64,000 nucleotides of DNA from Nitrosopumilus sp. (GTDB lineage: Archaea; Thermoproteota; Nitrososphaeria; Nitrososphaerales; Nitrosopumilaceae): contig OZ242186.1 of NCBI GenBank assembly GCA_965205675.1, positions 736,001 to 800,000 of the forward strand, written 5' to 3'. This document shows positions 16,437-20,560 of this stretch, piece by piece; positions within the stretch are counted from its first letter, which is position 1, and each line of letters opens with the position of its first letter. The notes under the pieces are model-generated. The model was not told the DNA's origin. It saw only the letters and a list, made by a program, of their open reading frames with translations, and made no database searches. The position numbers and the translations under genes were made by a program.

Positions 16437-17180
16437 TTATAATTTTGAAATTAATACCGCATAAATGAATGGCAATATTATTGCCCCTTCTGCATAAAGT
16501 GTTGATTGTTTTGCAATCTGCGCTACTTTCCCTCCCCGAAATGCCTCTCTTACTAATGCACCCCTAAGACTCCCATCAAATTTTTGTGCAGTAGTTATGT
16601 AAAACGCATAATCTGACCCTTCTCTATGTTGATTCCACCAATTGCCCAATAAAGAAAAGAATCTTCTTCCAAATGCATTCCAATCATCTTACAAATTTCT
16701 GTGGCACTCATCTCTTTGGCTTCTTTTTGATATTCTTCTTCCAAAAATCCCTGTATTTTTTCTTCAATTAACGGTTCGTAACTATCCACTGGGACGAGGA
16801 CGTTTCCTAATCTATGTCTTGATTTGTTAATTTCATATCGTCCATTGTAAATGACCCTTCTTTATAATGTGAAAAATGCCGTGCAATGTCGTGATCTAAT
16901 GCACCACATGTTGTAATTGCAACATCAAACCATTTGTTTTTGCTAATGTCTTTGATAATGCCTCTTAGGATTGTTGATACACAACTGCTTCTACAAATGA
17001 AATGAATCTTAAACATTTTTTATCTGAAATCATCTCTGTTAAAATTTCTAATCTGTTTGATGGGTTTACTGATTCAAATCCTTTTGATTTTGATAATTCT
17101 TCAATTTTTTTTAATGTGATGTTTGAATGAATTTCTATATCTTTAACTGGACGACCTATAGGTCTATCGTGAATTTGTGT
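16437..17180 (-). pseudogene. deoxyhypusine synthase pseudogene
   Basis: Fragments RPVKD, LRGII...ITTCGALDHD, GNVLVP, SFLYWA, YITTA...DGSLRGA...EA...GKV in different frames; central part missing; 5' boundary approximate. Confidence 0.88.
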
Positions 17181-17274
17181 GTTGGTGTCAAGTATAAAAT
17201 CCTGCCTTCGTCAAAATGATTTTTCTCTATTCTCTAAGAAAACTTTAAACCCATCTAATAACACCAAATTTAGA

Positions 17275-18369
17275 ATGACGGGAAGAATTAAAGTTGGTTT
17301 GGTGGGTATTGGTAATTGTTTTTCTGGTCTTATTCAGGGAATTGAATATTATAGAAAAAACCCTACTCAAGAAGTTACTGGAATTATTCATGATAAATTA
17401 GCTGGTTATGGTATTCATGATATTGATTTTGTTTGTGGTTTTGATGTTGGTGAAAATAAAGTTGGAAAACTTCTTCATGAAGGAATCTATGCATTTCCCA
17501 ATATGGTTGATTGGATTCCTCAAGATGAATTACCAAAAAACGATGCCAAAATTTACGAAAGTCCAATTCTAGATGGTGTTGGGCTGTGGGTTGAAAATCG
17601 AATAAAACCTATTGAAAATCCAAAATCTGTAGAACAAATAACTGAAGAAGTTAAAAAAGTAATCAAAGATTCTGGTGTTGAAATAATTGTATCTTATTTG
17701 CCTGTTGGTTCTGATAAAGTAACTGAATATTGGGCACAGATTTGCCTTGATACTAATACTGCATTTGTAAATTGCATTCCTTCGTTTATAGCGTCTGATG
17801 AAACATGGGCAAAAAAATTTGCAGACAGAAATATTCCTTGTATCGGCGATGATATCAAAGGACAAGTTGGTGCCACTATTGTTCATAGAACTTTAGCTAA
17901 ATTATGTAATGATAGAGGAACTAAAATTGAAAAAACATATCAAATCAATGTTGGTGGCAACACTGATTTCTTAAACATGAAAGAACAAGATAGACTCGTT
18001 TCAAAGAAGATTTCTAAAACTGAAAGTGTTCAAAGTCAGCTTGATGAAAGATTAGATGATGATCAAATTTATGTCGGCCCTTCTGACTTTATTCCTTTTT
18101 TAGGTAACACAAAACTCATGTTTATGCGAATTGAAGGTCGTCAATGGGCAAATATCCCTTACAATATGGAAGTACGTTTAGAAGTTGATGACAAAGCTAA
18201 TTCTGCAGGCATTGTAATTGATGCAATCCGATTAGCACGAATTGCACTTGATAGAGGCGTGGGCGGACCAATCAAGCCTGCTAGTGCATATTTAATGAAA
18301 CATCCTATTGAACAAACTTCTGATGTTAAAGCAAAAGCTGCTTGTGAAGAATTTGTTGCAGGTGACTAG
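17275..18369 (+). CDS. ino1: myo-inositol-1-phosphate synthase
   Basis: GIGNC, YLPVGS, GDDIKGQVGAT, NVGGNTDFLN, DKANSAG, AYLMKHP. Confidence 0.96.
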   Translation: MTGRIKVGLVGIGNCFSGLIQGIEYYRKNPTQEVTGIIHDKLAGYGIHDIDFVCGFDVGENKVGKLLHEGIYAFPNMVDWIPQDELPKNDAKIYESPILDGVGLWVENRIKPIENPKSVEQITEEVKKVIKDSGVEIIVSYLPVGSDKVTEYWAQICLDTNTAFVNCIPSFIASDETWAKKFADRNIPCIGDDIKGQVGATIVHRTLAKLCNDRGTKIEKTYQINVGGNTDFLNMKEQDRLVSKKISKTESVQSQLDERLDDDQIYVGPSDFIPFLGNTKLMFMRIEGRQWANIPYNMEVRLEVDDKANSAGIVIDAIRLARIALDRGVGGPIKPASAYLMKHPIEQTSDVKAKAACEEFVAGD

Positions 18370-18399
18370 TCACTGAAATTATTCATGTGAATTGTTTTG

Positions 18400-18583
18400 A
18401 TACATTTCATCTCTTTCTAAACATTAGGGCATGGCTTTCGTTAGAGAATGGTTTCAATCAAAAGATGGCAGACATGTATCCATACGAGACTATTCTCTCA
18501 ATGCTATCTTCATCCTAGTTAGGATTGTTCGCAGTTATTAGACGAGGCCTTGTCCCTCATAAATTTCAACGCGACTTGCAGTC
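18400..18583 (-). ncRNA. candidate bridge RNA / seekRNA of the IS110 element
   Basis: Stems ATGAGG/CCTCGT, TCCTA/TAGGA and AGAGAAT/ATTCTCT; loop segments match the reconstructed target and donor (see findings); ends approximate. Confidence 0.65.
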
Positions 18584-19577
18584 CTAACTATAATTTTGTA
18601 CAAATTCTCTCCTCTCCTTTAACATCCAATAAATAACACGCAATAACTTTGATGCACCAGCTACTGCAGCTTTGGATGATCCTCTTTTCTTTTTAATGCG
18701 ATTATAAAATTTTGTAATGTCGCTATCTGGTGCGTATCTAACATGTGCATGAATTGCCTCCACTAGCAACCATCTTAGCATGGTGCTTCCTCTCTTTGTA
18801 ATTCTTCCGTGATGTATTGTATCTGCAGAATTTCTCACCGATGGAACAATCCCTGCATATGCACATAACTTGTGAGAATTTGAAAATCTACTAATCTCTG
18901 CAATTTCTGAGAATATGCTCAATGCTGTGTATGGTCCAACTCCAGGTGTTGATATCAAAATACACACATCAGGATTATCATTTACCATGCGACGTATCAT
19001 GGAATCTATTTTTGCAACCTCCTTTTTGTGAAATTTTATGCTTTGTAGGTACGAATCTATTCTATAACTCTCCAATTTTCCAAGTGCACGTATGTGTTCT
19101 GAGGAAAATGGTGTTGCTTTGATATGGATTCCCTCCTGTAGTGTAATACCATGTATGGAATTCTTCATCTTTACAATAACGCGTATAATCTTGTGTCGAT
19201 GTCTTACAAGCTGTCTGTATTGCACAATTGTGTGATCTGGCACAAATGATTCTGCAATGTATCCCTCCTCGTAGCAAATTTGCAAGATGGTACGCATCAA
19301 TTTTATCAGTCTTTTTGAGTGATGATGCTATTATCTTTGTGTTGTATGGATTAGATAGTATAACATCAAGATGTAATTTGTCTGTCATGTGTCTATAAAG
19401 GCCATACCAGACAGATGATGACTCTAAAACATATTTTGCGTTCTTTGGAATTTTGGATGTAATTTTGCTAATAGCAGAAAAATCACTGGAAATCTTTTTG
19501 TTAAATAATAATTTGCCAATCTCATCTACTGCTGCCACCTGTACAGAGTTCTTGTGAACATCCAATCCTACAAACAT
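18584..19577 (-). pseudogene. IS110 DEDD recombinase/transposase with a 1-nt frameshift
   Basis: An extra G near 19264 (GGAGGGATAC) splits NLLRGG/YIAES between ORFs 19062-19676 and 18584-19300. Confidence 0.88.
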
Positions 19578-19694
19578 CAAATATTTTTTTTCAGGAAGGG
19601 TAGTGTGTTTGTTTGCATTTCTTACTTTCTTGATACGAATGCAAGTACCATCTAATTTCCTAGCTGATTTTGGCACATATGGTTATAGTTATTA

Positions 19695-19832
19695 GACCTC
19701 TTGCGTAATTATAGAGATTTTTTCTCAAATTTTGTATTTTAACAGAATTCATACCTGAAAATTCAAATTTCTCAACCAATTTGAAAAATCCTGCAGCAAA
19801 ATTCACGCCTAGAAATAATCACGCAAGACGTC
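19695..19832. mobile_element. 138-bp MITE, copy 1
   Basis: TIR GAC(C/G)TCTTGCGT(A/G)ATTAT; TATTA duplicated at 19690-19694 and 19833-19837; near-identical inverted copy at 32544-32681. Confidence 0.92.
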
Positions 19833-20560
19833 TATTATTAGAATCTGAAAATCTAACTCTTCTACTCTCTTCATATTTGTCCAAATCAAATTCTTCACTT
19901 GATCCACATTTCCCATTTAGTCTCATAACTTTTGTTGTCATTACTTTGTTATTTTTGATTAAATCTATGGTGAGACTACCGCCAAATCTCTGATTCTCTA
20001 CATTTGCTGCTAAAATTGGGACTCTTCTCCAATGCTCTAACTTGAACATACATCTGTCATGGTTTAATCCCCCGTTGGACTATTCGACTTGGTGAAAACA
20101 ATGCTTTGGCTCCTTTTTTTACAAATGTGTTGGCTACTTTGCAAATACCCTGTCGTAACAAATCACCACTCCAAATTTGCAGGCTATATCAAAAATTTTA
20201 GCCTCTTTTCTAGGCTTGACATTATCTCGTTTAGTCAAAAGGATGGATTTTTTCTTATCTGCCTATGACATCGTCTTTGGGTCAACCCCCTATTATTGGA
20301 GAAATTATTGATGACTTAGCCTTGATGATTCCATAAAATGCTCCTAGAATTGTGGTCGTGGAAAATTCTTTTGTTATTTTCTTAAACTCTGAAAATTCTA
20401 CATCAGAATCATCTATCTCGTTATTTCTTAGCCATTGCTCTGGCAGGCATACAATGTTCGTGTCTGTCCTTCCTAATTTTTTTAAAATTTTTGAAACTTG
20501 TTCAATTCCTTTTTGATTTGTACTTTGTGATGTAATTTGAATTAATCCAAGCTTTGCCAC
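19833..20560 (-). pseudogene. carbon-nitrogen hydrolase (nitrilase family) pseudogene
   Basis: N-terminal KLGLIQ...VCLPEQW, C-terminal VPILAANV; multiple frameshifts; last codons displaced to 18366-18383 by the MITE and IS110. Confidence 0.8.

Follow-up and report, generated by a model that had tools for sequence, protein, structure and literature searches.

What leads an insertion element to one particular site when its recombinase gene is followed by noncoding sequence that resembles both that site and the element's own end? The question is raised by a 64,000-nucleotide (nt) stretch of DNA from Nitrosopumilus sp. (assembly GCA_965205675.1, contig OZ242186.1, positions 736,001 to 800,000 of the forward strand), which we call the window and whose numbering is used for all positions given without a contig name. 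The insertion element in question, here termed W, occupies positions 18383 to 19692 on the minus strand, if one copy of the shared core (TA, here up to ATAA) is included. Both termini of W are points at which similarity to other copies in the genome breaks off. Comparison with these copies and with relatives in other assemblies makes it very probable that W is an archaeal IS1111-type element whose 3' noncoding end encodes a predicted bridge RNA, or seekRNA, with guides to both target and donor.

Class was assigned from Pfam and Protein Data Bank (PDB) comparisons together with the anatomy of the element. The recombinase gene of W (18584 to 19676, minus strand) specifies a DEDD/RuvC-like domain and a Transposase_20 domain. 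One extra G divides it into frames of 204 and 238 amino acids (aa); the intact form in relatives has 363 aa. The first piece matches the DEDD_Tnp_IS110 domain PF01548 (E = 5.6e-14) and the second PF02371 (E = 1.3e-21). The protein of a related element, type B, matches the PDB chains of ISCro4 (9t56; E = 4.6e-12) and IS621 (8wt6; E = 2.8e-9). Together, the two Pfam domains and the homology to the ISCro4 and IS621 chains place W in the IS110 family. The reading frame opens 10 nt into the element from its left end, with the GTG of ATATGTG, and closes with a stop codon at 18584 to 18586, after which 200 nt of noncoding sequence extend to 18384. This longer noncoding region downstream of the recombinase gene is a mark of the IS1111 group, as are the subterminal inverted repeats and short left extension of type B, which fall within the range for that group (7 to 17 bp). 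The family and type given in a first-pass annotation of the window are therefore retained, as is the thaumarchaeal host: the organism belongs to Nitrosopumilus, and the closest relatives of the recombinase likewise come from Nitrosopumilus sp. records.

Conserved fold of the noncoding end

The genome (2.01 Mb, a single contig) was searched with BLAST and a covariance model. It holds four main kinds of related element, which we call W, A, B, and D, plus several fragments. The noncoding ends of these elements share a two-domain fold. In W, RNA domain 1, the candidate target-binding loop (18516 to 18590, minus strand), consists of a 9-bp outer stem that overlaps the stop codon, an inner stem, and a hairpin (GAGG/CCTC) set in an internal loop. 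RNA domain 2, the candidate donor-binding loop (18450 to 18515, minus strand), contains a covarying hairpin (GAGA/TCTC, 18499 to 18486).

The covariance model of this fold, R1 (143 positions, 28 pairs), was built from an alignment of eight in-genome variants (A3) with a hand-written structure that comprised the outer stem, inner stem, and hairpin 1 of the first domain and the closing stem and hairpin 2 of the second. MAFFT had misaligned type A in two other alignments (A1 and A2); R1 was built without type A, which the model then recovered. R1 matches 30 places in this genome. In relatives it gives 89 matches, namely, 16 places in 30 family-genome loci and 73 places in 77 loci taken from named Nitrosopumilus, Cenarchaeum, and Nitrosopumilaceae assemblies. 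Most matches begin only a few bases from where the recombinase gene ends.

Two alignments, A4 and A5, were used to measure how well the fold is kept, and both were fitted to R1, which favors the structure of R1 in the values that follow. In A4, 83.9% of cells are paired, versus 40 to 47% when partners are slid, and 20 of the 28 pairs have changed on both sides; in A5, the corresponding values are 91.6%, 37 to 54%, and 16 of 28. None of 500 shuffles reached the observed level in either alignment. The outer stem is paired in 81% (A4) and 85% (A5) of cells. The weaker helices on A4 are the two-pair inner stem (48%, versus 76% on A5) and the closing stem of domain 2 (77%, versus 94% on A5). Because G-U pairs account for 122 of 1,598 cells on A5, and would be A-C on the opposite strand, the fold can be assigned to the sense strand. 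Entropy per column is 1.03 bits for the 5' side of loop 1 (TL) and 0.83 bits for its 3' side (TR), compared with 0.04 to 0.59 bits in the stems. Variation is concentrated in the loop sides of an otherwise conserved scaffold.

The structured noncoding sequence that the first-pass annotation had placed after the transposase stop is thus present, and the two-loop structure that it expected among homologs was found by covariance model, with covarying stems. One of its details fares differently. The stem AGAGAAT/ATTCTCT, named as closing the second domain, is present in W where it was described; it is peculiar to W and B and does not covary in homologs, in which the conserved feature is the local hairpin. 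Tested as a conserved stem across 36 hairpin-2 variants, it scored 4.08 in cognate versus 3.97 in noncognate combinations, a value reached by 4,564 of 20,000 permutations.

Downstream of domain 2, at about 18425 to 18445 (CTAACGAAAGCCATG), lies a further motif that is conserved in relatives in a TAGCGAAAGCTA-like form. From its sequence, it could form a short hairpin with a GNRA-type loop, perhaps as the third domain of a long RNA form.

Candidate guide segments and the sequences that they match

The two sides of loop 1 resemble the two halves of the insertion site on different strands. TL (GTTGAAATTTAT; 18559 to 18570, minus strand) is the reverse complement of the right flank, while TR (GTCTAATAACT; 18533 to 18543, minus strand) reads, in the same sense, as the left flank, the core, and the first bases of the element. 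The sense-strand strings that first drew attention to this region are in place: TGAAATT at 18568 to 18562 and GTCTAATAA at 18543 to 18535, flanking the hairpin GAGG...CCTC. The TL of W matches 7 nt of its own locus (TL TGAAATT, right flank AATTTCA) and 10 nt of a contig from run X1 that resembles the empty site. The same relation holds in type B (TL TGTAATTAT, right flank ATAATTACA), type A (TTCACAT, ATGTGAA), and type D (AAACATAT, ATATGTTT). TR follows the pattern of left flank plus TAAC, with GTCTAA in W and AACTA, the end of the type-A prey, in type A.

For W alone, chance was assessed with 5,000 dinucleotide shuffles of its 200-nt noncoding end. Of these, 33 contained a direct match of at least 9 nt to the left half, 1,314 contained a reverse-complement match of at least 7 nt to the right half, and 7 contained both. 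The right-half match of W is unremarkable by itself.

Comparison across elements is more telling. A smaller test took one representative per element from several genomes and 14 nt of right flank; L025 was omitted from both halves of the test and G000_B from the TR half, as their guides duplicate another row. For TL, taken as its reverse complement, the longest run shared with the right flank had a mean of 5.95 nt in 19 cognate pairs versus 3.47 nt in noncognate pairs (0 of 20,000 permutations as high). The core-anchored run of TR averaged 3.15 nt in 13 cognate pairs versus 0.29 nt in noncognate pairs (0 of 20,000), with the type-A left flank taken one unit too far out (run of 1 as scored, 5 by eye). 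Wrong-strand controls remained near or at noncognate values, with 3.95 versus 3.32 for TL read directly (55 of 20,000) and 2.54 versus 2.54 for the reverse complement of TR.

From a larger set, three duplicate records, the left flank of type A, and all rows lacking a recognizable end motif were excluded. Here, TL runs of at least 7 nt were found in 38 of 73 cognate pairs versus 108 of 5,066 noncognate pairs (42 TL variants), where 15 of the 73 pairs come from one 16-copy family and many of the pairs are related, so that the counts overstate independence. Taken as medians per TL variant, runs reached at least 7 nt in 18 of the 42 variants and at least 6 nt in 25. TR runs of at least 3 nt were found in 33 of 56 cognate pairs versus 60 of 2,922 noncognate pairs (27 TR variants). 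Individual cases include L064 (11 nt on the right, 5 on the left), L053 (10 nt), L116 (9 nt), and the 16-copy family, in which ATGATTCATA on the right and TTGC-TAA on the left recur in 13 to 14 of 15 sites. Close relatives that differ in the guide columns occupy correspondingly different sites. The loop sequences therefore covary with the flanks of each copy, and the proposal that the noncoding end encodes the element's own target guides is borne out by about 40 natural guide variants. In this genome, an unoccupied site (G000:C1:1787396, GTCTAATAATTACAA) is matched by both type-B target guides over 14 to 15 nt.

Loop 2 has a 5' side (DL, AGATAGCATT; 18509 to 18500) and a 3' side (DR, GTATGGATACATGTCTGCC; 18485 to 18467), both on the minus strand, around hairpin 2. 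This hairpin covaries (GAGA/TCTC in W and B, GGGG/CCCC in A, GAGG/CCTC in D) and is paired in 97 to 99% of cells in A4 and A5. The first bases of the 3' side, G(A/T)AT(G/A)GATA, repeat the sequence of the element's own 3' end followed by the core. In W, the heptamer ATGGATA within DR (18477 to 18483, minus strand) copies the family 3' end and core (CACATGGA-TA) in the same sense, and the end of W itself (CACATGAATA) has one mismatch to this guide. Where DR has ATGG or ATAG, the 3' end has the corresponding CATGG or CATAG in 37 of 38 distinct pairs, and rarer variants are concordant too (GGGTA in L046 and AGG in L036). The DR match often extends into the right flank, as in type A (ATGGATATGTG), L046 (11 nt), and L029, L037, and L053 (9 nt each). 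The donor guide that had been suggested for the second domain thus stands in part. Its copy of the 3' end is conserved and covaries; the 8/10 match to the far end, for which the string CGTATGGATA is present at 18486 to 18477 as described, and the TGAA/TTCA pair are not conserved.

A motif located about 33 nt inside the cognate left end recurs, in the same sense, as the 5' side of loop 2. The stretch common to the two places is AGATAGCAT (9 nt) in type B and AGATGGTACT (10 nt) in type A; cognate combinations average 6.79 versus 5.52 for noncognate ones (11 of 20,000 permutations). The inner left-end motif of W (19644 to 19653, minus strand) is the A-type AGATGGTACT, which equals the 5' side of loop 2 in cognate elements; in W the motif and DL (AGATAGCATT) differ because loop 2 of W is B-type. 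In relatives, a CAGATGGTAC-like left-end motif is seen at +32 to +44. By eye, the 5' side of loop 2 is also a reverse complement, over 4 to 6 nt, of ACCAT or ACTAT, the bases that directly follow the core. When its reverse complement was compared with the whole left end, the longest run gave no signal (4.50 versus 4.55).

Ends, copies, and defects of the element

The ends of the family are clearest in type B, which begins with TAACTATATGTGAAT... and finishes with ...ATTCACATGG(A). Its 8-bp subterminal inverted repeats, with a left extension of 7 nt, are ATGTGAAT, 8 nt inside the left end, and ATTCACAT, ahead of the terminal GG(A). In chimeric W and type A, only ATGTG is shared. An element-free paralog of the flanks of one B copy reads ...TTTTTTCCAATAATTACATAAAATTAG and fixes the type-B junction. 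Because this empty site carries ATAATTACA, the ATAATTACA found after all 10 B copies is target and not element. ATAA occurs once in the type-B empty site and at both junctions when the site is occupied. Across relatives, what is common to both junctions narrows to TA, the junctions being left flank-TA-ACCATATGTG and CACAT(G/A)GA-TA-right flank. Two loci depart from the usual form. L033 has an identical 32 nt (ATATTATTCGTTTTGAAATTTCAGGTATAATG) directly before the left end and after the right end, much longer than the usual core, and L037 has its right end in tandem duplicate (GACCACATGGATAAT GACCACATGGATAC).

For W, the junction is fixed by an orthologous occupied site and by the contig that resembles an empty site. 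The latter, from run X1, departs from the window at 18370, and its next 30 letters resemble the left flank joined to sequence past 19835, with neither the element nor the neighboring miniature inverted-repeat transposable element (MITE). A second X1 contig and locus L086 of a related assembly carry the element at the same site, with 19692 joined to 19835. The MITE (142 bp; 19693 to 19834, no strand assigned) has 17-nt inverted ends (AGACCTCTTGCGTAATT and AGACGTCTTGCGTGATT), is present in about 29 copies in the genome, and abuts the left end of W without being part of the element. Because the MITE is absent from this position in L086 and the X1 contig, it was inserted at the left junction after the arrival of W. 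The TTATT reported at both ends is found at 18379 to 18383 and 19689 to 19693. The AGAC that had been read as part of the original target must be given up, as it is the tip of the MITE and is absent from the orthologous insertion in the related assembly. The original left half of the W target was probably ...GATTCTA, which still sets 8 nt (TCTAATAA) against the guide. In its present state, the right target half with the core is TGAAATTAT (18374 to 18382, plus strand), directly after the stop of a myo-inositol-1-phosphate synthase gene.

The far boundary of W had been called ambiguous by 6 bp, which proved correct and has its cause in nesting. A B-type left-end stub, ATAACTA (19686 to 19692, minus strand), stands ahead of an A-type left end, TAACCATATGTG (19685 to 19674), nested in that stub. 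Nesting of this kind is general for type A. All 16 of the 16 A-type left ends lie within the left end of a sibling at the fixed point ATAACTA^TATGTG, with type-B or type-D hosts (e.g., G000:C1 1664863-1667534, 1501175-1503842, and 927335-930004). The A-type guide (TTCACAT / AACTATA) matches this sibling left end, and the same nesting occurs in the related assembly (L084, L088, L098, and L116).

The right end carries an A/T-rich octamer, the A/T box, which lies at 18395 to 18402 (minus strand), 13 to 6 nt before the terminal CACATG, and reads TATCAAAA in W and TATAAAAA in type B and relatives. It occurs 13 to 6 nt before CACAT(G/A)G in all 31 distinct right ends inspected (loci L054 to L130), preceded by GAAATG, with the variants TATAAAAA, TTTAAAAA, TTTATAAA, and CTTAAAAA; a regular expression for the octamer flagged 50 of 70 rows. 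The box is probably an outward-facing archaeal TATA box, i.e., a promoter. Its spacing suits this role and would put the transcription start at or just past the element end. The right end of W, A/T box included, faces the 3' end of the myo-inositol-1-phosphate synthase gene (17179 to 18369; PF01658, E = 1e-32), which stops 5 nt short of the right target half.

Type A is represented by nine full or nearly full copies that are 97 to 98% identical to window positions 18596 to 19692 and have a different noncoding end. The 10 type-B copies are 86 to 87% identical to 18373 to 18910, rising to about 95% in the noncoding end, and the four type-D copies show about 68% identity. In W, a type-A left end and open reading frame are joined at the last codons to a B-like noncoding end. 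Judged by these similarities, W is a chimera, with a B-like left-end stub, RNA, and right end and an A-like recombinase gene and inner left end. The related assembly holds the same chimeric kind in at least six copies, with intact 363-aa frames and differing TLs.

The base that breaks the gene lies in a run of three C (19263 to 19265, minus strand; GGG in the sense direction). W reads GGAGGGATAC, while the B and D paralogs and seven loci of the related assembly (L086, L087, L091, L096, L098, L114, and L118) read GGAGGATAC. Contigs of runs X1, X2, and X4 have one letter fewer at 19263, and X2 contains both alleles, with 9,125 of 13,538.8 depth units lacking the extra letter. The single extra G described in the first-pass annotation is therefore extra by comparison with the paralogs and with relatives whose frames are intact. 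The same split frame is seen in 8 of the 8 other full-length A-type copies scored. In type B, 8 of the 10 copies share one common frameshift after residue 55 (e.g., G000:C1 1773274-1774612 and 815076-816412), and two copies are open at 371 aa; three type-D copies are open at 369 aa. The common frameshifts of types A and B suggest that copies with defects are able to spread or persist, perhaps with help in trans. W itself combines the extra G with an altered last base of the right end, TATCAAAA in place of TATAAAAA, and an inner left end that misfits loop 2. From these features, W probably cannot move unaided, even though its target guides continue to match the site.

Competing explanations, mechanism, and known systems

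Under the guide RNA reading, the 200 nt after the gene would be transcribed together with the recombinase gene and would fold into the two domains. Because the 3' side of loop 1 reads as the left target half and the TA core, it would pair with the bottom strand, and the loop-1 guides would set both the insertion site and its orientation. In loop 2, the 3' side would present the sequence of the element's own 3' end and core, as the covariation indicates, while the 5' side may fit the first left-end bases (weakly, over 4 to 6 nt). By analogy with studied systems, the RNA would bind the DEDD recombinase and align a circular donor with the target, and the recombinase would exchange strands between circle and target at the TA core, as for IS621 and ISEc11. 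The same RNA might also recognize both junctions for excision, as in the tested relatives (PMC13626964). In the circle, the putative promoter of the A/T box would read into the recombinase gene.

Several results weigh against this reading, in addition to the fitting of A4 and A5 to R1 and the relatedness of the scored pairs. The median TL run is 4 nt or less in 7 of the 42 variants, and the TR run is 0 or 1 in 19 of the 56 pairs. TL matches over only 3 nt in L026/L094 and L029/L106, and the left flanks of in-genome type-B copies fit their guides poorly (runs of 1 to 5). L086, the ortholog of W, has a different TL (GTTAAAATGCTT) with a run of only 4 nt against the same flank. The 5' side of loop 2 fits two candidate partners, the first left-end bases and the +33 motif, and the probable promoter has its basis in sequence only. 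A search of Rfam 15 over 17800 to 20300 returned three matches only (snoU36a, U6, and snR75), far under their gathering scores. Folding of the single noncoding end is undistinctive on the sense strand (z = -1.40, with 16 of 200 shuffles as good), and the antisense strand gives z = -2.87. Because single-copy folding and Rfam are unremarkable, the case rests on comparison with other copies.

Some of these observations favor a competing view, in which the noncoding end serves as a structured 3' untranslated region or provides right-end binding sites for protein, the protein picks the site, and the flank matches reflect chance or AT-rich composition. The 7-nt match of W was reached in more than a quarter of its shuffles, the folding energy is undistinctive, and some elements show no match; such a view does not accord with cognate matches that far exceed noncognate ones for both TL and TR in the larger set (with no permutation as high in the smaller test), or with guide columns that are the most variable part of a conserved scaffold and differ between close relatives at matching, different sites. 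We regard it as very improbable. The guides could instead act as single-stranded DNA of the element end, like those of IS200/IS605, an option that sequence comparison cannot distinguish from same-strand guides made of RNA. This, too, has very little probability in our judgment, given an IS110-family protein whose solved and tested relatives use RNA (PMC11208160 and PMC11187229), a strand-specific structure with many G-U pairs, and the position of the segment directly downstream of the open reading frame on the sense strand.

A further alternative concerns the state of W and not the nature of its guides. The extra G might be a recoding site, with the A-type recombinase made by a +1 ribosomal shift at GGAGGGA and W therefore active. 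All nine full-length copies scored (W and eight of type A) do share this G, and in X2 the allele that carries it stands at high depth beside the intact one. Against this, alleles without the G are intact at 7 of the 7 loci checked in the related assembly, and the different common frameshift in 8 of 10 type-B copies points to the spread of defective copies, perhaps helped in trans. W additionally has an altered right-end base and an altered A/T box. Recoding thus appears quite unlikely, and we retain W as a probably immobile copy of a family with predicted guide RNAs.

Bridge RNA and seekRNA recombinases are under development as programmable tools for genome writing, and studies so far concern bacterial elements. 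The archaeal set adds about 40 guide variants on one scaffold, at many independent sites and with intact recombinases of 363 to 371 aa, and the family could serve as a data set for the pairing rules of IS1111-type guides. It also helps account for the heavy repeat load of some Nitrosopumilus genomes and provides a case in which members of a single family prey on one another's ends. For specialists, the points of interest are the breadth of natural reprogramming, the sibling-targeting subfamily, the chimeras, the right-end A/T box, and the left-end motif. We raise tentatively, and with more doubt than confidence, a broader idea: that the Nitrosopumilaceae harbor a fast-diversifying, RNA-guided radiation of IS1111 type with features undescribed for its bacterial counterparts. 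These features would be dozens of natural guide variants on a single scaffold, a sublineage that targets sibling left ends and is parasitic on its own family, lineage chimeras of recombinase versus RNA and ends, a complete outward-facing archaeal promoter in the right end, and a donor-loop 5' side that mirrors a motif 33 nt inside the left end, which would hint that donors are recognized in a geometry unlike that of IS621.

Elements of the IS110 family have been cataloged in archaea, and the highest insertion sequence content in one survey, 14.95%, belongs to a Nitrosopumilus genome (PMC13343696). Literature searches, with supplements outside their scope, found no publication that describes this element family or its guides in Nitrosopumilus; archaeal entries may be in Supplementary Table 5 of PMC11208160 and Supplementary Fig. 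2 of PMC11187229. The comparisons below draw on these two papers, Durrant et al. 2024 (PMC11208160), in which bridge RNAs are predicted in the right end of 93.0% of IS1111 entries, and Siddiquee et al. 2024 (PMC11187229).

The family described here resembles ISEc11, ISPa11, ISKpn4, and ISPst6 in its DEDD recombinase, PF02371 C-terminal domain, and subterminal inverted repeats (PMC11187229). It shares with the IS1111 elements that use seekRNAs a left extension of about 7 nt, a long noncoding end downstream of the gene, no target duplication beyond the shared bases, and relatives redirected naturally through changes in the guide segments (PMC11187229). Guide order agrees as well: for IS1111 types, Siddiquee et al. 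2024 (PMC11187229) report that the segment matching the top strand is located 5' of the one matching the bottom strand, with overlap between the two matches in the target, which is the arrangement found here. Unlike the bacterial seekRNA elements, the present family has an archaeal host, of the Nitrosopumilaceae. Its open frame of 363 to 371 aa, with a K/R-rich N-terminal extension of 40 aa, compares with the 330 to 350 aa quoted for the family; its conserved serine motif is SA, in contrast to SG or TG; and it has a single right-end A/T box in place of the split -35/-10 junction promoter of ISEc11 (PMC11187229).

With IS621 and ISCro4, the predicted RNA has in common two internal loops, paired guide segments around a hairpin, the division into a target loop and a donor loop, and a core dinucleotide that is part of the pairings; the proteins are homologous (PMC11208160). 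It differs from them in lying after the gene instead of before it, with the strand-specific order of the guides reversed, and in a TA core in place of CT, longer inverted repeats, and 3'-side guides that extend into the integrated junction (PMC11208160). Finally, type A resembles known elements whose insertions fall at one set position within the terminal repeat of a different mobile element, whereas the prey here is a sibling of the same family.

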